IMG/VR virus record: IMGVR_UViG_3300044833_000182
Location: 1 to 64,000 of that record
DNA from: a virus
DNA length: 64,000 nucleotides
Reading direction: 5' to 3' (one strand)
Shown here: positions 851-13,657 of the stretch, in pieces
Layout of the letters: each line of letters starts with the position of its first letter
Position numbering within the stretch: position 1 is the first letter of the stretch
Notes under the pieces: model-generated
What the model saw: only the letters and a program-made list of their open reading frames with translations
Database searches by the model: none
What the model was told of the DNA's origin: nothing
Position numbers and translations under genes: made by a program

Positions 851-2338
851 GTGGCCGACAAATGGTCCACCCTGTTCGCACCCAAGGCCGCCAAGGGCGA
901 CATGGCCGGCTCCCCGGCCGACGCGCAGGCCCGCGCCCGCTACCTGGCGAGCCTGCACAGCCCGGCGCCGGCGCAGTGGACCAGCAGCCACCTTGCCGAG
1001 GACATGCGCCTGACGGGCGCGGTGTACGTCGCGGTCAAGGTGCTGTGCGATCAGGCTGCCTCCGCCGAGGCGGGCGTCTTCCGCGTTCCGAAGGGCAAGC
1101 ACGCGGCCGACCCCGACGCCCGCGAGCCTGTCGAGCCCGATCACGCGCTGGCGACCCTGCTCCGCCGCCCCAACACGCAGGAAACAATGGGCGGCCTCCT
1201 GCGACGGATGACGCAGCAGATATCTCTCACGGGGACTGCTCTCGGCTGGCGAGTGGACGACGACTACGAGCCGCGCGAGGTGTGGAGCGTGCCCACGGGA
1301 ACGTATCAGCCCGTCGCCCCGGGTGGGTACTACCCGCAGGGGGCATACCGCATTCAGCCGTACTTCCCCGGGCCGTTCGCCATGATGCCGGGGATGGGAT
1401 TGGGTGGCGTCATCGTCCCGGCGGAGCAGATGATCGCGGCCCGCTACCCGCACCCGCTGCTTCCCGCGCACGAGGGGTATTCGCCATTGAACGCCTGTGC
1501 ATTGCCGCTGGACACGATCGAGATGATCGACCGGTCGCGGGCAAGTCGGGTCAGGAGAGGGGCGAACGTATCGGCGGCTGTGGAACTGGATCCGGGGATG
1601 AGCTGGCCCGACGGCGACGGCATGACGAGGCTTCGCGCGGAGATTCAGCAGTTGCTCGGTGGACCGGACAAGGCGGGTGGGATCGGCATACTTGGTCCGG
1701 GTATGAAACTGAATCAGGTCAGCAGCGACAATGTCGAGGTCGGCTGGATCGAGTCGTGGGGGCAACTGGTGAGCTTTGTCCTGTCGGTCTTCGGCGTGAC
1801 AAAGAGCCTGGCGTTCATGAGCGAGGAAACCACGTTCGCGGCGCTGTACGCAACGCTGAAACAGTTCGACCTGTTCACGCTGTGCCCGCTGCTGCAACTG
1901 ATTGCCGACGCGATCAACATTAGCCTGGTGTGGCCGTTCTACGGCGAGGAGTACTTCGTCGAGCTGAAGCCGAAGAAGATCACTGACGAGGATGCCGTCG
2001 CGAAGAAGGTGCAGCTTGCCGCGTCGGTCGGGGCGATCACGAAGAACGAGGTGCGCATCGCCCTGGACTGGGAACCGACGAAGGAGGCGTGGGGCGAGGA
2101 GCCCGCCGTGGTCGCGAAGGTGTCCGAGAAGGGCGATGTGGACCGCAGCGGCAGCATCGGCGGCGCGGGCGGTCCCGCAGGCGGCGGCAACGGCAAGCCT
2201 CCCGAGGAGCGGGGAGAACCTGCGGAAGTGGCGAAGGGGCGGGACAAGAACCCGCAGGGGCGCGGCAGTCTGGGCGACAGGAAACCGCTGGCAGGCGCTG
2301 GCAAGAGCAACGGTCACGCGGGGGGTGGGCGATGGTGA
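851..2338 (+). CDS. Portal protein (HK97 family)
   Basis: VYVAVKVL, HALATLLRRPN, GYSPL, ITKNEVRIALDWEP motifs; position. Confidence 0.9.
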   Translation: MADKWSTLFAPKAAKGDMAGSPADAQARARYLASLHSPAPAQWTSSHLAEDMRLTGAVYVAVKVLCDQAASAEAGVFRVPKGKHAADPDAREPVEPDHALATLLRRPNTQETMGGLLRRMTQQISLTGTALGWRVDDDYEPREVWSVPTGTYQPVAPGGYYPQGAYRIQPYFPGPFAMMPGMGLGGVIVPAEQMIAARYPHPLLPAHEGYSPLNACALPLDTIEMIDRSRASRVRRGANVSAAVELDPGMSWPDGDGMTRLRAEIQQLLGGPDKAGGIGILGPGMKLNQVSSDNVEVGWIESWGQLVSFVLSVFGVTKSLAFMSEETTFAALYATLKQFDLFTLCPLLQLIADAINISLVWPFYGEEYFVELKPKKITDEDAVAKKVQLAASVGAITKNEVRIALDWEPTKEAWGEEPAVVAKVSEKGDVDRSGSIGGAGGPAGGGNGKPPEERGEPAEVAKGRDKNPQGRGSLGDRKPLAGAGKSNGHAGGGRW

Positions 2339-2964: not shown

Positions 2965-3678
2965 ATGCTTACTTTGGCCAGCGGACAGGTTGCGGCGGCA
3001 GATGCTCCCGTGTACACGGTTGGCGCAGGCGTCAGCATCGTCTCTGCCATCTTCGATAACACCTCGGGTAGCACAACCGAGACTGTCGTCGTCAAACTGG
3101 TCGCCCTGGGCGCAACGGCGCGTCGCGTCGCCCGCGCCGTGCTCGCCCCCAACGAGCAACTGCTGATCCAGGGTTTGCCCATGTCGCCCGGGGACGTGCT
3201 GTCGGCGACGACCACGGACGCGACGACGGTGGACTACACCGTCTTCAGCAGCACTGGCGAGTTGCGCATGCAGACGCTCGACGCCAACGGGGCGCTCAAG
3301 GGCACGTCGGCCGGCGTCACGGGCAACCAGAGCGTCGGCGGTAAGCTGACGGCAAAACTGGTGGAGGTCGGCCCGCAGCCGGCCGACGTGTACGCGGCGA
3401 CGATGACCATTGACGTGACGTATGGGCTGCACATCGTCTCGGCAGTCAGCGGCACGTCGGCGACTTGCGCCATGACGCCATCCGCTGCCGGAACCGCCGG
3501 CGACGAGGTCACGATTGTCACCGAGGCCGATGCGTCCGGTACGGTGACGACTACTTACGCCTCGACGTTCCACTCCAGCGGCACACAGGCGACCACGGCG
3601 AGCCACAGCAGCAGCGTCACGTTCGTCAGTGACGGAGTAAAGTGGGTCGAGAAGTGCCGCACGACCAACCTGGCATAA
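2965..3678 (+). CDS. Thr/Ala/Val-rich putative virion protein
   Basis: Beta-rich composition, head region. Confidence 0.55.
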   Translation: MLTLASGQVAAADAPVYTVGAGVSIVSAIFDNTSGSTTETVVVKLVALGATARRVARAVLAPNEQLLIQGLPMSPGDVLSATTTDATTVDYTVFSSTGELRMQTLDANGALKGTSAGVTGNQSVGGKLTAKLVEVGPQPADVYAATMTIDVTYGLHIVSAVSGTSATCAMTPSAAGTAGDEVTIVTEADASGTVTTTYASTFHSSGTQATTASHSSSVTFVSDGVKWVEKCRTTNLA

Positions 3679-3689
3679 GAGGACAGTTC

Positions 3690-4046
3690 ATGATCCTTGC
3701 ACTGATCGATGTATCCCCGGCCGACCACGACGGCCGCACAAACCTGATCGCGAACCTGGAGCACGTCCAGACGATCACGCTGGAGGCTGACGGCCGACTG
3801 CTGCTGGCCATGACGGACGGGACGAAACTTCTGGCCGAACGCACCGAGGGGACGTGTGCGGTTCTCAACCGAGCGTGCAACGGCATTCAGGCGCAGTCCC
3901 GGCTGACGCCGCCGAAGGCGAAGGACGCGCCGAAGGATGGGCCGAAGGCCGACGCGAAGCCGGAACCCGTCCCGCCGCAATCGCCGCCGACCCCGGCGCC
4001 CGTACCGCACGCGCCGCCCCAGAGGCCCGCGAAGACGAAGGAGTAA
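3690..4046 (+). CDS. Hypothetical protein, Pro-rich C-terminus
   Basis: GAGGA RBS, ATG at 3690. Confidence 0.6.
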   Translation: MILALIDVSPADHDGRTNLIANLEHVQTITLEADGRLLLAMTDGTKLLAERTEGTCAVLNRACNGIQAQSRLTPPKAKDAPKDGPKADAKPEPVPPQSPPTPAPVPHAPPQRPAKTKE

Positions 4047-4049
4047 TCC

Positions 4050-4256
4050 GTGGCTGATACTGAGGCATATCTGCCGCCGCCTCCGAGTTACCTTAGCCGA
4101 ATGGAGTACAAACGCGAATTGCGCAACAAGGCCACGAGGTTGTTCCGGGAAAGCGGCGTCCAAGGAATGTACCTGCGAGGCCTCGCAAGATTGGACAAGA
4201 AGCCTTCTCTTGAGGACGGGGAGACAGCTCAGAATTTCGGCAGAGGAAGGCTTTAG
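4050..4256 (+). CDS. Hypothetical protein
   Basis: AAGGAG RBS, GTG start. Confidence 0.55.
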   Translation: MADTEAYLPPPPSYLSRMEYKRELRNKATRLFRESGVQGMYLRGLARLDKKPSLEDGETAQNFGRGRL

Positions 4257-4278
4257 CACCTGACCCAAGGAGTAACCC

Positions 4279-4506
4279 GTGGCTGATGCAAACGACGAAG
4301 CGGCGAAGGTCCAGGCCGCCCGCGAGGACGGCGTCCACGTCCTGACGTACCTGCAAACGCTGTCCCGCGCTTACCCCGGCCGCGTGGAGCCGGGGCTGCT
4401 GGCGTTCTTGGAGGCGGCGAACGGGTGTGCGTTCAGCGGCGAGGTGCTGGCGCGGGAGATGGTGAAGGCGGCGCAGACGCCGCACTTGCAAGCGAAGGCG
4501 GTGTAA
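4279..4506 (+). CDS. Hypothetical protein
   Basis: AAGGAG RBS, GTG start. Confidence 0.6.
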   Translation: MADANDEAAKVQAAREDGVHVLTYLQTLSRAYPGRVEPGLLAFLEAANGCAFSGEVLAREMVKAAQTPHLQAKAV

Positions 4507-4511
4507 GGGCA

Positions 4512-5141
4512 ATGGGCGAACGGCCGCAATACGTCTTGGAGTTGTCCGAGGACCACGTTCAACTGAGCGAGGAAGAGATTGCGCGTCTGCGGGCGGACGC
4601 TACGGACGCGCTGGCCAATCATCAACTGATGCTCCTTCCGCCCGGCATGAAGATGCGCCGCCTCGACGCCGGCGCGCCGCAAGCCCAGATGGACCGGCTC
4701 CTTGCCCTGCTGGCGCTGTCGCCCGAGGAGCGGACCTTTGTCACGTCGGCGTTGACGGGAGGCGACGGGGAGGACTTCTGGCAGGTGTTCGCGGACTACC
4801 TGGAAGAGAAGGGCGTGGCTGGGGCGGAGAGGATCAGGCGGACGGCCCCTGTGAGTGAGCCGGCCGCGCCGACAGTGGAGGTCAGGATGGCGCAGCCGGA
4901 GGAGCGGCGGTTGGGGATCGTTCGTGTAGATCTTTACATCTTGGCTGGCGCGCTTCATTTACCGCAGGCGGCTCGCATCGTCCGGGTGAGCGATCAGGCT
5001 TATTTCTCCTCCGGTCAACTCGGGCTGATGATCCACGACCCGGCTTTACCGGAAACGATGCCAGGAAATCAGGTTCCGGAAGTAACAGCGACGTATCACA
5101 CGGCCGACGACGGCCAGATTGTTGTCGAGTGGAGGCTTTAG
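4512..5141 (+). CDS. Protein with internal TIGR02996-like motif
   Basis: EDFWQVFADYLEEKG resembles the (I/V)YADWLEE.G motif. Confidence 0.5.
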   Translation: MGERPQYVLELSEDHVQLSEEEIARLRADATDALANHQLMLLPPGMKMRRLDAGAPQAQMDRLLALLALSPEERTFVTSALTGGDGEDFWQVFADYLEEKGVAGAERIRRTAPVSEPAAPTVEVRMAQPEERRLGIVRVDLYILAGALHLPQAARIVRVSDQAYFSSGQLGLMIHDPALPETMPGNQVPEVTATYHTADDGQIVVEWRL

Positions 5142-5145
5142 TTCG

Positions 5146-8100
5146 ATGACCCAGCTCCTGACCCGACCCGTGCGCCGCCGCCCGCTGGAGCCTGACGCTC
5201 TGGCGCTGCTGGCCGCGCGCGGATCAAATCAAGGAGACGGGTACTCTTACAAAATCGCTCCCGACGCCTACGCTCTCGACGCTCCCGCGTCGACAGAAGA
5301 TCCGGAGTTCAACGACCGCAGGCAAAGCATCACCTTCCCATTCGCTGCCAGTTTAGGGCGCGATCGCGTGGGCGATTGGCTGGACGTGGAGGGGATCGAC
5401 ACCCGGGCGCATCGTTTGTACCCAGTGGCGGCGCTCGACCATTTCAAATGGATGCGCTGGCCTTTGGGATTGACAGAAGATCCCGATAGTAGAGAATACA
5501 GGGTATGGATTGACGAAGACGCTGGCCTGGCGTGGTGCGAGGTCTTCATCAATTCACACGTCAAGGAGGCAGAGCAGGCTTTCAAGATGTTCCGCTCCAA
5601 GATATTGCGGGCGGGAAGCATCGGGTACAGGCCGCTTCGCGTGTCCAAACTCCCGGCCGATCCAGAGCAAGGGCAGTTGAAGCCGGGACTGACGCTGCAC
5701 GAGGTTGAACTCCTCGAAACAACGCTCGCCGTGTTACCCGCAAACGGCGATGCCGTCAGACGCTGCCTCATGGACGGCATCGAGGGCGAACCCCTCGCTG
5801 CGGGGTTCAAGTCGCTCCTCGCGCCTTTTGCAAGCGCCGCCCCGGAGATGGTTGTCGGCGGCTGGCAAACCAAGGACACGGCCCACAAACCAGCCGGCTC
5901 CTCCGAGGGCGGACAGTTCACCAGCGGCGGAGGGGGCGGCGCAGCGGCAACCACCGGCGCGCAGGCCAAGAAGAAGGAGAAACGCCGCGGCAGCGGCGGC
6001 ACATCAGCCCCCGCGCCTCGCCCGTCGCTCGCCCGTCGCGTAACGAGCGCCCTTGCCCGGCACGCCTCCACCATCGTCAAGGCGGGCCTGGGCGTCCCGA
6101 AGGAGAAACTCGCGGCCCTCTACCTGCACGTCCCGGAGTCGATGCGCGCCCCCGTGGGGAACCTCTGGCACGCAACGCACGCCGTGCTGATGTCCGCGAA
6201 CGCGGCAACGCAGGCGCTGGCCAAGCGGGTGATGGAAGACAAGGGCCTCGACGAGGCGGCAGTAACGAAGCTGGCGTGGCAGTTGGGCGCGGTGGACCTG
6301 GCGTTCCAGGGAACCATGATGGCAACGGCCATTGCGGCCGCCCCCGTGGCCCACGGCCTCGCGCTGGCGGCCAAGGCGGCGAGCTACTGCCCGGTGGCGA
6401 GCGCGGCCTACATCCTCCATGCCAGCGCGTCGCCGGGCAAGGCGATGAAGACGATCAAGAGCGCCTACGCTCTGCTCAAGGAGAAGTTCCTCGACCAGAT
6501 GCGCGGCAGCGCCGCCTTTGCCTGGGGTGCGGTGCGGAACCCGCTCACGTCGGCCGTCACCGTGGGCGCCGGCCACAAGACGGCGGGCGATTGGACGGAC
6601 GAGGGGGCGGCGCTGATCGCGGACGCCTACGCGGCGGCGGCGAACCCGGATATGTGGCTGGCGCTGTTCTCCGCGGCGTTCGACGACGTACGCGACGTGG
6701 CGGAAGCGGTGGAGATGGCGAACGCCTGCGCGGGAGAGGGCGGCTCACTGTCGGGTTCCGACAGTGAGAAGACGTTCCCCGGCAAGGCGGCGGACGGCGA
6801 GGTACACCGCTTTGCCTCGACGCAATTCGATCTTCCCGAGCCGATCCGTTCGCGCGTGCTGGAGCTGGCAGCGAAGATTCCCGACGAGGATCTCGCAGAG
6901 GATGGTCGCGAAGAACGCCCCCACATTACCGCACGCTTCGGGTTGCACGGGGATGACGGCGAGGACGGGGCGGCTGCTGTGCGCGGCGTTGTCGGCGGGT
7001 TCGGCCCGGTCAAGATCCGGCTTGGCGGTAAGTCGATCTTTGCCGGGGACGATTTCGACGTGGTGAAACTGGACGTGGAAGGCGACGATTTGCACCGTCT
7101 GCACGATGCGCTCGGCGACCTGAATCACATCGACACGCACCCGAAGTATCAGCCACACTGTACTTTGGCCTATGTCAAGCCGGGCATGGGCAAGAAGTAC
7201 ATCGGGAAGAGCGGGTTGGAGGGAGAGGAGGTTACTCTCGACAAGCTGGTGTACAGCGACCGCGAGCGGAACGAGACGGAGATTTTGCTGAAGGCCGACG
7301 GCAAGTCCTTCACCCCCTCCACCAAGGACGCCGTTGCCCCCTCGATGTCCGCGGGCGACATGACCACGGGCGGCGCGTTCATCGGCCCGGCGTCCTTCGG
7401 CAGGGGGATTACGCTTCATCGGGGCCGTCCCGCGATCCTGAAGCGCATCCGGCGGAAGAAACCGGGGCTTGCGGTGGGTAAGACGTTCGAGCCGGACGGC
7501 AAGACGGAGACGGCGCACAAACCCGCAGGCAGTCCCGAGGGCGGGCAGTTCACGACGGGAAGCGGAGGAGGCAGTAGCGCGGCTGGCGACGGTGGGAAGA
7601 AGCCGAAGAAGGCCGCGGCGAGCAAGGCGGAACCCGCCCCTCACCCCGGCAGCGTCCACGGCTCGGCCGTGACCGTCAAGCCGAGCAAGGAACGCGCCTG
7701 GGACGGCAAGCCGGCGCCGCTGAAGACGGCGCTCACAAAACAAGAGACTGGACAGGTGGGAGAAGCGGTGGCGCTGGCGTACCTCAAGAGCGTGATGGGC
7801 GCCGCCGACGCCCGGCCGCTGAATCTGGAGATGCCCAACGCGCCCATCGACTTGATCGAGGATCACGCGCCCACAGAAGTCAAGGCTGGACTCGCCGGGA
7901 ACAGCAAGAAAGCCCAGCAATGGCGACTGACGTTCTCCAAGGAGAGCGCGAAGGAAAAGGCGCTGTACGAGACGATGAGCAAGGAGGAGCGGGCGGCGTG
8001 GAACGCTCAGAAGCAGAAGCGCATCAAGGAACGAAAGGACGCGATGGTCAAGGTTCTGGAGAAGCGCACTGGGGGAAAGGTTAAGCCGCGTACACTCACC

Positions 8101-8226
8101 CTGATTGTTAACCCCGACACAAGGACAGCCGACGTGTACCTGTTTGACGGGCTTCATGACAGAATCGGGTGGGCGGGGCCGGAAACTGAAAAAGCCTATC
8201 GCGGATCGGTGAAGTACGATGGATGA
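5146..8226 (+). CDS. Prohead maturation protease fused to helical domain, 2H phosphoesterase and PD-(D/E)xK-like nuclease domain
   Basis: Protease motifs ALDH, GSIGYRP, LLETTLAVLPAN; 2H motifs HIT (6922) and HCT (7156); C-terminal GEAVALAYL...IDL...EVK. Confidence 0.8.
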   Translation: MTQLLTRPVRRRPLEPDALALLAARGSNQGDGYSYKIAPDAYALDAPASTEDPEFNDRRQSITFPFAASLGRDRVGDWLDVEGIDTRAHRLYPVAALDHFKWMRWPLGLTEDPDSREYRVWIDEDAGLAWCEVFINSHVKEAEQAFKMFRSKILRAGSIGYRPLRVSKLPADPEQGQLKPGLTLHEVELLETTLAVLPANGDAVRRCLMDGIEGEPLAAGFKSLLAPFASAAPEMVVGGWQTKDTAHKPAGSSEGGQFTSGGGGGAAATTGAQAKKKEKRRGSGGTSAPAPRPSLARRVTSALARHASTIVKAGLGVPKEKLAALYLHVPESMRAPVGNLWHATHAVLMSANAATQALAKRVMEDKGLDEAAVTKLAWQLGAVDLAFQGTMMATAIAAAPVAHGLALAAKAASYCPVASAAYILHASASPGKAMKTIKSAYALLKEKFLDQMRGSAAFAWGAVRNPLTSAVTVGAGHKTAGDWTDEGAALIADAYAAAANPDMWLALFSAAFDDVRDVAEAVEMANACAGEGGSLSGSDSEKTFPGKAADGEVHRFASTQFDLPEPIRSRVLELAAKIPDEDLAEDGREERPHITARFGLHGDDGEDGAAAVRGVVGGFGPVKIRLGGKSIFAGDDFDVVKLDVEGDDLHRLHDALGDLNHIDTHPKYQPHCTLAYVKPGMGKKYIGKSGLEGEEVTLDKLVYSDRERNETEILLKADGKSFTPSTKDAVAPSMSAGDMTTGGAFIGPASFGRGITLHRGRPAILKRIRRKKPGLAVGKTFEPDGKTETAHKPAGSPEGGQFTTGSGGGSSAAGDGGKKPKKAAASKAEPAPHPGSVHGSAVTVKPSKERAWDGKPAPLKTALTKQETGQVGEAVALAYLKSVMGAADARPLNLEMPNAPIDLIEDHAPTEVKAGLAGNSKKAQQWRLTFSKESAKEKALYETMSKEERAAWNAQKQKRIKERKDAMVKVLEKRTGGKVKPRTLTLIVNPDTRTADVYLFDGLHDRIGWAGPETEKAYRGSVKYDG

Positions 8227-8350
8227 GAAGCTGAAGGCGGAAGTGGAAGACGAGTTTGACGCCTGGCTCGACGAGTACATCGAGAAGTGGGGCGCTGCCG
8301 TCGAGGCGCACCTTGAAGAGATCGACGGGAAGGAGGGCAAGGAACAATGA
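8219..8350 (+). CDS. 43-aa acidic protein, candidate immunity protein (not in ORF track)
   Basis: MDEKLKAEVEDEFDAWLDEYIEKWGAAVEAHLEEIDGKEGKEQ overlaps both neighbours. Confidence 0.65.
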   Translation: MDEKLKAEVEDEFDAWLDEYIEKWGAAVEAHLEEIDGKEGKEQ

Positions 8351-9051
8351 CCGCCGCCGTTGCCGCACCCGAGACCAAGGCCCTCGCCGACGTGTTCAAG
8401 CCGTACCCGTACGACGACGAGCGCATCCCGCACATGGCGCAGTGCCTGGGCAACCTGTACGGCTGCCTTGAACAGTTCGCCTACCACGCCCGGTACATGC
8501 GGCAGTCCGGCGAGAACACGGATGTTCTTGCGTGGCTCGATTCCATCGACCCAGACGCGGAGGCGCTGGCCCGCAAGATTGCCGAGAAGTTCGCCGCAGC
8601 CTACCCCGACCTGGAGCCGCTGCTAAAAGAAGAGATCAATGGCAAAGACTTCAGTCCGTTCACCAAGGTAGTCGCCCTGAAGGAGGAAAAGACCATGCCG
8701 GAGCCTGTGATCCCGCCGGAGCCCAAGCCGCCGGAGAAGCGCGAGGAACCGCCCGAGAAGAAGGAGGAAACCAAGCGCCTTGCCTCCTACCACAAGAAGG
8801 CCATCGAGGGGGCGGCCGACCACCTCGACAAGCTGTCCAGTCATGACGGGCTGGAGGACGAGCACCAGAAGATGTGCTACCACCATGCCAAGGCGCTGGA
8901 GGGCGTGCTGGAGGATGACGAGGAGGGGCGTGGGGAGAAGGACGACGAGGAGATGACGCCGGAGGAAAAGAGCCTGATGCAGAAGGTGCTCGCCAAGCAG
9001 CAGCGTGAGATCGAGGACAACAACAAGATCCTGCAATCGCAGGGCAAGTAA
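8347..9051 (+). CDS. Charged helical protein, possible scaffold
   Basis: Between protease and capsid; E/K rich. Confidence 0.55.
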   Translation: MTAAVAAPETKALADVFKPYPYDDERIPHMAQCLGNLYGCLEQFAYHARYMRQSGENTDVLAWLDSIDPDAEALARKIAEKFAAAYPDLEPLLKEEINGKDFSPFTKVVALKEEKTMPEPVIPPEPKPPEKREEPPEKKEETKRLASYHKKAIEGAADHLDKLSSHDGLEDEHQKMCYHHAKALEGVLEDDEEGRGEKDDEEMTPEEKSLMQKVLAKQQREIEDNNKILQSQGK

Positions 9052-9121
9052 CGGAACGACACGCTCTTCGCGGCCTCGGAAACCGCGCTGGGCAAGGGGC
9101 CGAAACAGAGAAGAGGGCAAC

Positions 9122-10525
9122 ATGCCAGGACTCATGGATCAGTTGACGGAGAACAACCGCAAGCTGGACGAACAGCGTGCGTTGATTCAGCAGGGGCGCG
9201 CCGCGCGCCACACCGGAGCGGTCCCCGACCGCGCGCCGCGCGCCCGCCGCGGCGAGAACATCATGTCCAGCCGGGGGTTTCAGATCGGCAAGGTGATCGG
9301 CGTCGTCGGCAAGAACGCCAAGATGCGTCGCGACGAAGCGAAGATCGAACTGGAATTCTGTGACCGGCTGAACAACCAGATGGCCGCGCAGGGCTGGCGC
9401 GGCGAGCACCCCGACGGCGTCCTCATTCCCATCTGGCCCGACGGCTTCGACGAGAAATCCCTCGACACGGCGACCTGGAAGGAGATGAAGGACCTCCTCT
9501 ATGCGGGCGTCGATGGGGCCGACGAAGGGGAGATGCAGTGGCTGCGCGGCCAGTACGGTCAGAAGGCCGCTATCTCTCCGTCGATGTCCTGGAACGACCA
9601 GACCACCGGCGGCAGCTTTGTTGGCCCGCCCACGTTCGGGCCGCCCATCGAACTCCTGCGGGCGAAAGAGGCCATGCTCCAGGCGGGGGCTTCCCTCGTC
9701 CCTCTGGGGCCGACGGGTTCGCTGGCCATGCCACGCCTCGCGGCCGCGACCACGGGCGGATGGATCGGCGAGAATACGCAGGCAAGCGCGACCCCGCCGA
9801 AGACCGGCTCGCTGCTCCTCCGCGCGAAGAAGGCGTTCGGCATCGTCGCGTTCGCGGCCGAATTCCTCCGCTTCGGTTCGCCCGCGGCCGAAATGATCGT
9901 CCGCAACGACCTCATGCTGACCGTGTCGCTCGTCGCCGATAAGGGTCTGCTCGACGGTCCCGGCTCGGACAACGTCCCCCTGGGTCTCGCCACGATGGGC
10001 GCCGCCGCGGGCAACCCCTACGGCATCACCATCGTCACGCCGGCCAACGCCAACCAGCTTGCCCCGCAGGACGTGTACAAGTTTATCAGCGGCATCGAGG
10101 AAGCCAATGGGACCATGACGGCGTGGATCATGCGCCCCTCCATGTGCTGGTCGATCTACGGCGCCCGCTGGACGCCCTACTCCGGCGGCACGTCTCAGGG
10201 CGGCTTCATGTTCGAACTGATGCGCGGCATGGGCGACGAGATGGACGCCTACCTGTCCGGCCACAAGGTCGTCCGCAGCACGCAGGTCAGCAACAACCGC
10301 GGCGTGACCGATCACTCGCGGACCTACATCCTCGGTCTGAACGGCCCCAACTACCTGATGGGCGTCTTCGGTGCAATCGAGGTGATGACCACCGCCGAGG
10401 GATGGAACCTCGTCAGTTCGGACCAGGTAGCCGTGAGGGCGCTGATGCACGTCGATGGGGGCATGCGCAACAACGCCGAGTGTGCTTTCATGGACCTGAT
10501 CAACCCTGCCGTCGTGGCTGGTTGA
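9122..10525 (+). CDS. Major capsid protein (HK97 fold)
   Basis: TGGSFVGP, IELLRAK, GWIGEN, DKGLLDGPGSDNVPLG, DQVAVRALMHVDGG. Confidence 0.9.
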   Translation: MPGLMDQLTENNRKLDEQRALIQQGRAARHTGAVPDRAPRARRGENIMSSRGFQIGKVIGVVGKNAKMRRDEAKIELEFCDRLNNQMAAQGWRGEHPDGVLIPIWPDGFDEKSLDTATWKEMKDLLYAGVDGADEGEMQWLRGQYGQKAAISPSMSWNDQTTGGSFVGPPTFGPPIELLRAKEAMLQAGASLVPLGPTGSLAMPRLAAATTGGWIGENTQASATPPKTGSLLLRAKKAFGIVAFAAEFLRFGSPAAEMIVRNDLMLTVSLVADKGLLDGPGSDNVPLGLATMGAAAGNPYGITIVTPANANQLAPQDVYKFISGIEEANGTMTAWIMRPSMCWSIYGARWTPYSGGTSQGGFMFELMRGMGDEMDAYLSGHKVVRSTQVSNNRGVTDHSRTYILGLNGPNYLMGVFGAIEVMTTAEGWNLVSSDQVAVRALMHVDGGMRNNAECAFMDLINPAVVAG

Positions 10526-10569: not shown

Positions 10570-10591
10570 ACCCAATCAGGAGGTATTTTCC

Positions 10592-11029
10592 ATGCTGGTT
10601 GATTTGGTCAATGAGGTGCTGTGCGCCCAGGCGCTTCCTCCGCAGATCCTGACCGCGACGGCGCAAGGCTCTGCCATCGACATGTCCGACTGCCTCGCCG
10701 GAACCGGCGCCATCATCGACGTGGGCGCCATCACGGCTGCCAACGTGACCTCGCTCGTGGTGCAGATCGAGGAGTGTGCCACGACCAACGGAACCTTCAC
10801 GGCGATTCCCGGCATGGTGGCCACCATCACGGCGACCACCACGCCGGGCAACCTGCACCAGGTGGTTCGCGGTCTGCGCACGCAGCAGTTCGCCCGCGCC
10901 AACGCCGCCACGTTCGCGGCAACCACGACCACGGGGGCATTCCCCGTCAACGTGGAAATCGTGGCACAGAAGAAGTACGTGGGCATTGCGGGCCAACTGG
11001 GAGGCTTCGACAACTATCCGGGGACGTAG
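10592..11029 (+). CDS. Putative head decoration/structural protein
   Basis: Follows capsid gene; beta-rich; GSAIDM motif. Confidence 0.55.
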   Translation: MLVDLVNEVLCAQALPPQILTATAQGSAIDMSDCLAGTGAIIDVGAITAANVTSLVVQIEECATTNGTFTAIPGMVATITATTTPGNLHQVVRGLRTQQFARANAATFAATTTTGAFPVNVEIVAQKKYVGIAGQLGGFDNYPGT

Positions 11030-11082
11030 GCAGTAGAAATATCGCCCATATACTCTTTTATGCAGAAAGGAGAACAGAGCGG

Positions 11083-11880
11083 ATGCCGCGTTACAAGGTC
11101 GCTCTGGGGATTCTGGCGGTCGGCGGGCAGGAACGGTGCGAGGTGGGCTCGTTCCGCGAGACGGCGGCGGTTCACTGCGCCGGCCGCGCCGATATGGACC
11201 TGATCACCATACCCATTGCGCGGACGCCGACGCCCATTGCGCGCAACGTGCTGGTGAAGGTCGCGCGGGAGCATGGCTGCGATTTCCTGGTCATGCTCGA
11301 CGAGGATATGGGAGTGCCGCCTGCGTTCTTCAAGGAGGCGCTCGCGTTCCTCGTCAAGCATCCCGGCCCGGCAGCCATCGGCGTTCCCTACTGCACGTCC
11401 TCGCCGCGCGAGGACGTGCTGGTGTTCGAGCATGCTGCCGCTGAGAGCGGCGCGCCCGGCGCTGCGTGGGCTATCACGAACGTCGTGCGGGAGGACGCAG
11501 CGCGGCGAACTGGGATTGAAGAGTGCGCCAACATCGGGACAGGGTGTATCGCATACTCCATGTCCTTTTTCAACGCCCTGACGCTGCCGTACTTCGATTA
11601 CAGCTACAACGAGGATCACACACAGGTTATTGAAACCGAAGACTGTTACTGTCACCGGCGCGCCTGGCAGAAGGGCCTTGACCTCTTCGTCCATTGGGAT
11701 TTCTGGGGGAATCACTACAAGCTGAAGCGCGTGTCGAAGCCTATTCCGATTGGGCGTGATGATGTAGTCAAGGCGTTTGCCCGCGACGCTCAAGCGGTTG
11801 ATCGGTTGGCCGCAAGGGGGCAACGCCAAGCAGTCAATGGCACGTTGTCTGTGCGTGGCAACGGCTGCAAAGTGGAGTGA
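11083..11880 (+). CDS. Glycosyltransferase (GT-A fold)
   Basis: IARNVLVK, FLVMLDEDM (DxD), IGTGCIAY, TEDCYC. Confidence 0.7.
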   Translation: MPRYKVALGILAVGGQERCEVGSFRETAAVHCAGRADMDLITIPIARTPTPIARNVLVKVAREHGCDFLVMLDEDMGVPPAFFKEALAFLVKHPGPAAIGVPYCTSSPREDVLVFEHAAAESGAPGAAWAITNVVREDAARRTGIEECANIGTGCIAYSMSFFNALTLPYFDYSYNEDHTQVIETEDCYCHRRAWQKGLDLFVHWDFWGNHYKLKRVSKPIPIGRDDVVKAFARDAQAVDRLAARGQRQAVNGTLSVRGNGCKVE

Positions 11881-12697
11881 TTTCAAGCCAATGAGCGCTG
11901 TCGAATCCCTTGTGATGCTGATACTTCTTTGCCTGCATCCCGCAGCGGGAACAGGGGAGAGAAGCGGCGCGCGGCAAGACGCCAGCCTTCACGGCGCAGG
12001 TGACTGCGTGGTAAGCCTTCCTGCGGATTGCAAGGGGAACGGTTTCCCGTCTCGCCGGAGCAAAGAGTTCGGGAGAAACGGGCCAACCGTAGTCAACCAG
12101 CCGATTGTAGATGGTGACAGTGGGAATGCCGAATTCTCTACCCCACTGGGTAATCGTCTGGGTTCTCCCATTGTAGATAATCAGGTGGTTGTTTCGCTTG
12201 TTGCTTTCTTGCTCGATCCGGGTAGCCCAGCGAACGTTGCCTGGTTCGTAGTGACCATCGTTGTTGATCCGGTCAAGGCTGTGTTTCTTGCTCGGCTTCG
12301 GGCCAACGTCCGCAAGGAAATCGACGAAGGATGTACGCCAACGGTCGCAGACGCGAATGCCGCGAGCGCCGTAGTCGGCATAGGACTTGAGGTTCTCGTT
12401 CTGGCATCGCTGGATCATGTCCGCCCAGGCACCGTATTCGGGAGGACGCTTTTCTCCTCTCCGGAGAAGACCGTGCGTGGTTCGTTTTTCCTTGGCAAGG
12501 CATCCACACGACCGGGTGTTGCGGCTTTGCAGACAGTTGCCGATGACGATGACTTCAGCGCCGCAAGTACAGCGGCAAAGCCATCGAAGTTTTCCGGATG
12601 GGGAGCGGTCTGCGAAAGCGAGAATCACGAGTCGGTCGAACTCGTCGCCGACCTTGATTTTCTGTCGCTGTTTTCGGGTAGAATGGCTTTCACCCAT
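11834..12697 (-). CDS. Free-standing HNH homing-type endonuclease with two His/Cys modules
   Basis: WLCRCTCG, SCGC, YGARGIRVCDRW, SLDRINNDGHYEPGNVRWAT; C-terminal CSRC..HH..LCSRCH. Confidence 0.85.
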   Translation of the reverse strand: MGESHSTRKQRQKIKVGDEFDRLVILAFADRSPSGKLRWLCRCTCGAEVIVIGNCLQSRNTRSCGCLAKEKRTTHGLLRRGEKRPPEYGAWADMIQRCQNENLKSYADYGARGIRVCDRWRTSFVDFLADVGPKPSKKHSLDRINNDGHYEPGNVRWATRIEQESNKRNNHLIIYNGRTQTITQWGREFGIPTVTIYNRLVDYGWPVSPELFAPARRETVPLAIRRKAYHAVTCAVKAGVLPRAASLPCSRCGMQAKKYQHHKGFDSAHWLEITPLCSRCHAQTTCH

Positions 12698-12820
12698 GAC
12701 GTGCCTGCCTCCAACAGGTGCTTCGTGGCCAGAGCCGGCCGGCGTGCCAACAACACGCCCCGGCTCGCTTATTCTACCCTACCAAACACGATTCAACCAT
12801 CTCGGGAGGAAGATAATTCC

Positions 12821-13657
12821 ATGCTCATTGATCTGGTGAACAACGACCATGAGAAGATCCCATCGCGTCAGGAACCGCGCGAGATCGTCTTGACTCGTGA
12901 TCAGGTCTTCAACAACTCCATCGACCTGACGAGCGCGCGGCTGTGGAAGACAGCGCAAGAGGAGTACGCCGCCAAATGCTCCCGCGTCATCCCGGCTTAC
13001 GACCTCGCCGTGAATCCCAACGGCGAACCCTTCCCGCCGCCCGTCGCCGCCGAGTGGGCGCGCACCGTGGAAGGCTGGATGCACCCTGAAGAACTCATCT
13101 GGCTGGCGGAACAGGCGGCGAGACTTCAGCCGGGCGACGTGTGGGTGGAAGTGGGGGCATGGAAGGGGAGGAGCACGGCGGCGGTGGTGCTGGCGGCTGG
13201 CAAGGATGTCGTTGTCTGCACTGTGGATACGTTTGCGGGATCGCAAGAGCACATCGCGGCTGGCCTGTCCGTCAACGACCTGCGCGACTGTTTCCTGAAG
13301 ACGCGCGAGAAACTGGGTTGGCTGCGACCGAACGGTCCGGATCTGCTGATGCACTCGGGTTATTCTGTTCCGGTGGCCGTACTGTTTGATGATGCGTCCT
13401 GCGCCGCCGTCTTCATTGACGCCGCCCACGATTACGCCAGCGTCAAAGCCGACCTGGAAGTCTGGTTGCCGAAGGTGAAGCCGGGCGGATTGCTCGCAGG
13501 ACACGACCGCAACGAGCCAGGCGTGCGGCAGGCGCTGAACGACGCACTGGGCGGCGGGCAAGTCCACGACGGCCCCGGGTCGCTCTGGTGGATGCGCGTC
13601 GCGGCGGTGGAGACCGTGGCGTCGGGCAACGGTCAGAAGATCACAGCAGAGGGGTGA
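12821..13657 (+). CDS. Class I SAM-dependent methyltransferase (Methyltransf_24-like)
   Basis: VEVGAWKGRST, FIDAAHDY, VKPGGLLAGHD; RBS before ATG 12821. Confidence 0.85.
   Translation: MLIDLVNNDHEKIPSRQEPREIVLTRDQVFNNSIDLTSARLWKTAQEEYAAKCSRVIPAYDLAVNPNGEPFPPPVAAEWARTVEGWMHPEELIWLAEQAARLQPGDVWVEVGAWKGRSTAAVVLAAGKDVVVCTVDTFAGSQEHIAAGLSVNDLRDCFLKTREKLGWLRPNGPDLLMHSGYSVPVAVLFDDASCAAVFIDAAHDYASVKADLEVWLPKVKPGGLLAGHDRNEPGVRQALNDALGGGQVHDGPGSLWWMRVAAVETVASGNGQKITAEG

Follow-up and report, generated by a model that had tools for sequence, protein, structure and literature searches.

Why should a phage maturation protease continue for hundreds of residues beyond its catalytic domain? The question is raised by a gene at positions 5146..8226 (+ strand) of a 96-kb viral record (IMG/VR IMGVR_UViG_3300044833_000182), of which the first 64 kb form the window analyzed here. 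Free proteases of the HK97 gp4 (S78) type are about 220 amino acids long, whereas this gene places 780 further residues behind its protease domain. Three of the four modules of the resulting polyprotein (P0001) can be identified, the gene lies among head genes, and the modules are shuffled among relatives. Two short peptide tags separate modules, and one linker contains a copy of the stretch where the delta region of the capsid protein meets the N-arm. In our reading, P0001 is a polyvalent head protein, whose N-terminal prohead protease would probably serve as the vehicle for cargo that is packaged, cut free inside the head and ejected with the DNA.

A chain of this size is unusual for a prohead protease, which raised the suspicion that mis-assembly or a frameshift has joined separate genes. 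Nothing was found to favor such an artefact, and we regard it as hardly credible. The gene is one uninterrupted open reading frame (ORF) of 1026 amino acids, which runs from an ATG at 5146, with GGAGG 10 nt 5' of it, to a stop codon at 8224-8226. The G+C content of its third codon positions (GC3, 0.80) is evenly high throughout, as in the real genes of the window. Many other long protease fusions exist, and in an independent metagenome protein from another sample (P0002, 1015 aa) protease, 2H phosphoesterase and C-terminal module follow one another in this order too; the fusion is therefore not an artefact of assembly. At none of the module borders was an internal start codon with a ribosome-binding site found, so that separate products would need proteolysis. 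In the phage GenBank collection the gene has no DNA match, and its protein matches there are confined to the 2H domain, in four huge uncultured phages.

The N-terminal module (aa 1-240; 5146..5865, +), whose conserved C-terminal helices end in GGW, had been called an HK97-type protease in an earlier note made from the sequence alone, and the call holds. In P0001 itself the domain scores below the curated thresholds of the family models (PF04586, 15.1 bits against 21; TIGR01543, 16.9 bits against 59), which sets it apart from HK97 gp4 and the other free enzymes. Its S78 identity is accepted because homologues sharing 43-54% identity pass PF04586 (P0081, 28.2 bits; P0107, 32.9; P0043, 27.1), because the dyad of His99 and Ser158 is invariant in alignments of 12 and 8 sequences, and because the predicted fold matches that of T4 gp21. 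In VIA-align the AlphaFold model (pLDDT 74) superposes on gp21 (5jbl_A) with Z 10.1 (140 aligned residues, rmsd 3.1), followed by the CMV, VZV and KSHV assemblins (Z 5.6, 5.4 and 4.4), while unrelated folds reach at most 3.4. Foldseek at E ≤ 0.001 gave no match for this model or for that of the C-terminal module, and sequence searches of the PDB, made with the whole protein and with module profiles (protease, C-terminal and Ala-rich), returned nothing relevant. Sequence and modeled fold thus identify the domain as an HK97/S78-type prohead protease. It is also the only recognizable one of the phage, as no ClpP, S77 or second S78 protease was detected in the 96-kb record.

The setting of the gene agrees with this identity. 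The record (64% G+C, about 89% complete according to CheckV) has all its genes on the + strand, and its head module begins with a portal gene (851..2338, +; PF04860, E 9e-36). Several small genes without a family match follow, and then come the polyprotein gene, a 43-aa ORF, a gene for an acidic scaffold-like protein of 234 aa (8347..9051, +) and the gene of an HK97-fold major capsid protein (9122..10525, +; PF05065; TIGR01554, E 3.5e-17), whose N-terminal delta region spans about 147 aa. Lying between the portal and capsid genes, the polyprotein gene sits exactly at the position of a prohead protease. The phage therefore resembles HK97 in the protease fold, the His/Ser dyad, the place of the gene and an HK97-fold capsid protein with a delta region. 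From this context, that of the sole protease found and of a gene between portal and capsid, we infer that the protease domain cleaves the capsid protein in maturation.

Behind the protease, the division into domains given in the earlier note holds. Residues 546-720 (6781..7305, +) match PF13563 at 38.2 bits (cut-off 27) and contain both HxT motifs (H593-x-T595 and H671-x-T673), which identifies this module at the sequence level as a LigT-like 2H phosphoesterase. Like the anti-CBASS protein Acb1, it is a phage-encoded 2H fold with two HxT motifs. Membership of the Acb1 family was rejected on score, since PF23474 gives a faint match of 13.7 bits against 27 (E 0.055) in P0001 and of 16.9 bits in a relative, P0057. 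Acb1 is moreover a free early protein and not a head fusion, and here it is the LigT-like model that passes instead.

The C-terminal module (CDOM; aa 828-1026; 7627..8223, +) has a fold of the PD-(D/E)xK nucleases with an inserted helical hairpin. Its model is confident (pLDDT 90.9), and its closest folds in VIA-align are I-Ssp6803I (Z 8.2), NhoI (8.1), Hjc (7.2) and Eco15I (7.0), followed by a match at 6.7. These Z-scores are moderate; 14 of the first 15 matches are PD-(D/E)xK or related endonucleases, and the fifteenth, 3fov, is uncharacterized. Across 26 CDOM sequences E873, D902 and K913 are invariant, and E911, of the E911-x-K913 pair, is kept in at least 90%. Model and residues together identify CDOM as a PD-(D/E)xK nuclease fold with an intact catalytic set, probably akin to YraN and Hjc, in keeping with the nuclease-like domain seen earlier. 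The window copy has no match in Pfam, PHROGs or NCBIfam, including the UPF0102/YraN model (PF02021), which weakly matches three of the 26 members (best E 4.9e-4).

The fourth module, here called HEL (aa ~285-535; 5998..6750, +), is conserved as a unit and recurs in other multidomain phage proteins. It had been described as an Ala-rich, hydrophobic helical domain. The Ala content is borne out (26% over residues 301-535), whereas the hydrophobicity comes down to one borderline stretch, the top 19-residue window scoring 1.6 at residues 391-409. No match to the module was found in Pfam, PHROGs, NCBIfam or PADLOC, or by sequence profile in the PDB, and neither it nor CDOM has a named counterpart in Pfam. 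Two atlas searches gave 0.83-0.84, which is chance level. A comparison with the named atlas clusters (colicin-like, RTX and glycine zipper) gave 0.77, a weak lead to membrane activity.

A full scan of 1.84 billion representative proteins gave 5407 that match at least one module, and the best 150 were mapped by querying them with each of the four modules on its own. Of the 151 related proteins examined, 102 contain CDOM; these 102 range from 218 to ~2100 aa, and CDOM is nearly always at their C-terminus, where it ends MuF fusions (P0004) as well as fusions to Mu-type portals (P0005, P0006). Giant proteins of 1000-4800 aa harbor the 2H module in their interior, and the Ala-rich module occurs together with 2H, NUDIX and DarB-like domains, among others. 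In P0002 a ParB domain takes the place that the Ala-rich module has in P0001. The protease is equally mobile, being found alone (P0081), joined directly to 2H (P0043, P0046, P0057, P0078), followed by a scaffold-like acidic tail (P0103, P0107, L013), by an HNH-like finger (L007) or by very long tails, in the interior of the 3100-aa P0013 and at the C-terminus of P0070.

As every module recurs in other combinations, with MuF, Mu-type portal and ParB domains and in giant proteins, P0001 is a polyvalent protein as defined by Iyer, Burroughs, Anand, de Souza and Aravind (2017; PMC5512222). At least two effector-type domains share one polypeptide in varied combinations, and the gene is encoded with those for head and packaging functions. 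In contrast, PF04233 (Phage_Mu_F), the domain that defines MuF polymorphic toxins, was found neither in P0001 nor anywhere in the 96-kb record. Fusions of 2H domains to MuF or portal proteins have been reported among polyvalent proteins, as have assemblin-like peptidases, which are predicted to process proteins in virion assembly (PMC5512222). The likeness extends to the presence of several effector-type domains in one polypeptide of the head or packaging module and to the shuffling of modules. The peptidases were, however, described as always C-terminal (PMC5512222), whereas the protease is N-terminal here and N-terminal or internal in many relatives.

A hint of what the protease might do to its own chain comes from the capsid gene. 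When the polyprotein was searched against its own genome, a second match appeared inside that gene: a 40-aa stretch between the 2H module and the second tag (aa 727-767; 7324..7446, +) aligns with residues 187-226 of the capsid ORF (9560-9685, +; 38% identity over 76 columns, E 3e-8). Across 120 capsid homologues, strong conservation sets in with this stretch, which comes after an indel-rich region and usually a Lys, and the TIGR01554 alignment puts it near the HK97 maturation cut. It is accordingly predicted to be the junction of delta region and N-arm. The same element adjoins the protease in seven relatives (P0002, P0011, P0070, P0079, P0103, P0107 and L013), always with Lys and usually with Lys-Asp before it. 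In P0103, P0107 and L013, only its first ~15 residues are present, exactly between the protease and the scaffold-like tail. The copies also follow their cognate capsid proteins: that of the window shares rare local variants with its own capsid protein, which ranks first among 121 junctions, and for the L013 copy the own capsid protein ranks fifth of 121. This comparison covers two phages (the window and L013), as loci L006-L008 and L011 end before the capsid gene and a scan of genome contigs for loci of the protease relatives found none.

The copied junction is thus predicted, from the sequence comparison, to be a substrate site: the enzyme that cleaves the capsid protein behind this Lys would sever its own polypeptide at Lys727|Asp728. 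The earlier note had already proposed self-processing, citing Lys followed by Thr, Ser, Asp or Ala in the linkers. Such steps carry no information, as 26 of the 76 lysines of the polyprotein precede S, T, D or A, many of them inside folded domains, which is chance level. The idea itself gains indirect support from the junction copy and its best match to the own capsid protein.

Binding could account for the copy as well. The element might mimic the N-arm and dock the cargo to the inner shell or to the delta/scaffold layer, any release then taking place elsewhere. Co-variation with the cognate capsid protein is equally expected of a binding site, the copy runs ~38 residues beyond the predicted cut, through Phe-Gly and a helix-like stretch, and P0055 has a junction copy and lacks a protease domain. 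However, the protease-scaffold fusions keep only the ~15 residues after the Lys, exactly where protease and scaffold must separate; a Lys, usually followed by Asp, precedes every junction copy; and past the Phe-Gly the capsid sequence gives way to an Arg/Lys-rich stretch unlike that of the capsid protein. On balance we consider docking quite unlikely and prefer a cut site. The Arg/Lys-rich stretch (aa 752-775; 7399-7470, +) is of a kind conserved in P0002, P0011, P0070 and P0079, and could bind DNA or hold more cut sites.

The following course of events is, in our view, more likely than not. The protease domain would bring the entire chain into the procapsid, in the way that free HK97-type proteases get there, and, once active, would cut the capsid protein at the delta/N-arm junction. 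It would also cut its own chain at Lys727|Asp728 and, probably, in at least one other linker site, releasing a fragment of ~50 kDa with the Ala-rich and 2H modules and a nuclease fragment of ~26 kDa. As folded fragments would be too large to leave the shell, they would be kept in the head and then be ejected with the DNA into the next cell. There, we would guess, the 2H enzyme may degrade nucleotide second messengers, or act on 2',3'-cyclic or 2'-5' RNA ends, and the nuclease may attack resident DNA.

The two tags call for a separate explanation. Tag 1 (aa 245-261; 5878..5928, +), of the type HKPAGS-x-EGGQF, precedes a Gly/Lys-rich linker that reaches to about aa 300, and tag 2 (aa 789-805; 7510..7560, +) likewise precedes a Gly/Lys-rich linker. 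As had been noticed before, the two are near-identical, sharing 15 of 17 residues. At the DNA level several synonymous positions differ, for example TCC against AGT for Ser, which indicates selection on the peptide and not a recent duplication of DNA. Three further forms occur in relatives, namely aromatic-Asp-Glu-x-x-His-Pro-Arg-x3-Gly-x-Phe (the HPR type), Gly-His-Glu-His-Lys-Gly...Gly-Gly-Gln-Phe and Gly-Gly-Glu/Gln-Phe-Ile-Pro-Gly. With a strict pattern, 61 tags are seen among the 151 module-sharing proteins, distributed over 40 of them, with 0.95 expected in shuffled sequences, and none in the 120 capsid proteins. Only one of the 61 falls within a mapped domain, and 27 stand at most 90 residues upstream of CDOM (median 28). 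What follows a tag varies, as the earlier note had anticipated for homologues: CDOM in MuF, portal and protease fusions, and ParB, an HNH-like finger or the Ala-rich module elsewhere. The tags are thus, as far as sequences can tell, a widespread punctuation motif between modules. No description of the GGQF motif was found in the literature searched. The paper on MuF toxins mentions no motif or linker (PMC5576092), and the full text on polyvalent proteins, which lacks the terms 'HPR', 'linker' and 'interdomain', apparently describes no inter-module tag (PMC5512222).

The tags could themselves be sorting or cleavage signals of the cargo blocks, with cuts at the preceding lysines (QTK|D and DGK|T). 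Their non-random placement between modules and the conservation of the peptide despite synonymous change would fit such a role, as would the Lys before both tags of P0001 and the TK|D context of tag 1, which resembles the TK|D of the junction copy. In relatives, however, tags of the window type have no conserved upstream Lys, and those of the HPR type have a conserved aromatic-Asp-Glu upstream, with Lys at -7 in 8 of 25. Portal and MuF fusions bear tags as well, in phages for which no protease is known, and no other protein of this 96-kb genome has one. The earlier note had suggested a sorting signal. Given the lack of a conserved Lys and of tags elsewhere in the genome, neither cleavage at the tags nor a sorting function across the phage is supported here, and we consider such roles unlikely. 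A good subject on which to ask whether tags mark cut sites is P0013, which has seven strong tags of both types, a protease at 842-1085 and a 2H domain; a weak eighth tag at 221-224 was set aside. Another combination is seen in L007, where an ORF at 7151-8779 couples the protease with a tag of the HPR type, a series of Pro-Thr-Ala-Ser-Lys repeats and the Cys-rich HNH-like finger. The next ORF of that locus (8754-10364) has an HExxH metallopeptidase motif and looks like a second polyvalent protein in the head module.

The behavior of the tags, in relatives and in this genome, also weighs against a protease-driven delivery of cargo, and several further points do so. Packaging, cleavage and ejection are all steps that we infer, the precise bond cut in the capsid protein is a prediction, and the copied junction could be a docking element instead of a cut site. 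The protease domain falls below the Pfam and TIGRFAM thresholds in its own right. The substrates proposed for the 2H and nuclease modules are guesses, and the Acb1 model scores below threshold. By our own estimate, cargo on all protease copies would plausibly amount to ~5% of the capsid volume as protein.

The extra modules might alternatively act only in the producing cell or the assembling head and never in the next host, as an enlarged scaffold or filler, as trimmers of nucleic acid during packaging, or, as has been proposed for MuF toxins, as a toxin that is set free at lysis and acts on neighboring cells. Relatives that fuse the protease to a scaffold-like tail instead of effector modules lend some color to this, and MuF polymorphic toxins have been discussed as weapons of the lysogen population (PMC5576092). 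A conserved small gene behind the nuclease module could further encode an inhibitor or immunity factor that protects the producer. This is the acidic 43-aa ORF (8219..8350, +), which overlaps both the stop of the polyprotein gene (ATGGATGA) and the start of the next gene (ATGA). Its motif Glu-Phe-x2-Trp-Leu-Asp-Glu-Tyr-Ile recurs directly after the nuclease-fold module in three other loci (L003, ~10580-11864; L004, 4430-5011; L005, ~3137-3292). In L003 the motif stands at the start of a longer protein, which also has a tag-like motif and a P-loop domain, and in L004 it is the N-terminal part of a 193-aa protein with a hydrophobic stretch. The small protein could equally be a docking handle.

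Against action in the producer stands, first, the separate scaffold-like gene of this phage. Its 234-aa product is homologous to the tail fused to the protease in relatives, with a significant match to the tail of P0103 (E 1e-10) and a non-significant one to that of P0107 (E 3.4). It is likely a scaffold whose gene stands apart in this phage, effector modules having taken its place behind the protease. Second, the modules appear from their sequences to be enzymes with intact active sites, and third, the same modules are joined to portal and MuF proteins, which stay in the virion. We therefore think it rather improbable that the modules act only before or at lysis, and continue to favor their delivery by the head.

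A broader and more tentative proposal, which we hold to be possible but doubtful as a whole, is that the junction copy and the tags form a general plug-in grammar for capsid loading. The junction copy, matched to the cognate capsid protein, would let any module placed behind the protease be freed in the head. The tags, in the forms HKPAGS-x-EGGQF, aromatic-DE-xx-HPR-x3-G-x-F and GHEHKG-x-G-x-GGQF, would be an undescribed short linear motif recognized by some conserved factor, perhaps the portal or ejection channel, perhaps a chaperone or another protease. This factor would mark module borders in polyvalent proteins across many unrelated phages. A third element of such a grammar could be the small acidic helix gene behind the nuclease module, either as docking handle or as inhibitor.

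The closest functional parallel is found in T4, whose internal proteins and Alt are targeted to the head, trimmed by gp21 at a motif of the capsid protein and then ejected (PMC9026906). Loading into the prohead, trimming at a capsid motif, retention and ejection are the steps proposed here too, and the cargo varies between related phages in T4 (PMC9026906) as the cargo modules do in this family. The T4 cargoes (IPI-III and Alt) are, however, small proteins in their own right, each bearing an N-terminal signal of 10 residues for binding to the scaffold core, and the T4 protease is of the S77 family and cuts after Glu (PMC9026906). Here protease and cargo form one covalent chain, and the element in common is a capsid-junction copy of 15-40 residues that follows a Lys. 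Fusions of head genes are also established in actinobacteriophages, where Microbacterium phages encode protease-MuF, protease-scaffold-capsid and protease-capsid proteins (PMC7302621). Like these, P0001 joins a protease to head functions, and like MuF toxins it has enzyme domains on a head protein as vehicle (PMC7302621, PMC5576092). The partner of the protease is, in contrast, not a structural protein but a set of three enzyme-type modules, and MuF is absent. The core idea is accordingly already known, from the polyvalent concept (PMC5512222) and from the processing of capsid cargo of the T4 type (PMC9026906), and P0001 does not represent a new class. What it adds to the polyvalent picture is the N-terminal protease as vehicle and the capsid-junction copy; the latter was not looked for in the text of PMC5512222.

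The value of the locus lies in offering a testable HK97-type case, in which the maturation protease would be the vehicle and one cleavage site is predictable from the capsid sequence. Proteins inside a capsid reach the next host before phage genes are expressed, which makes capsid-borne proteins prime candidates for a first-strike counter-defense. To our knowledge, few capsid-carried proteins have been described beyond those of T4, P1, N4 and the jumbo phages. The cargo considered here includes a 2H enzyme, a possible degrader of immune nucleotide signals, and a nuclease with intact catalytic residues. Two widespread modules without a match in Pfam, PHROGs or NCBIfam and a family of tags have been delimited, and could aid the annotation of polyvalent proteins and the design of capsid cargo.

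Three neighboring regions deserve brief mention. Upstream of the polyprotein gene, the coding signal is weak at 4046-4430, and the ORF directly 5' of it (4425-5141, +) has an uneven GC3 (0.72) and no family match. Downstream, just past the region of the capsid gene and within the structural operon, a 626-aa ORF (11777-13657, +) contains a Methyltransf_24 domain (E 2e-13).

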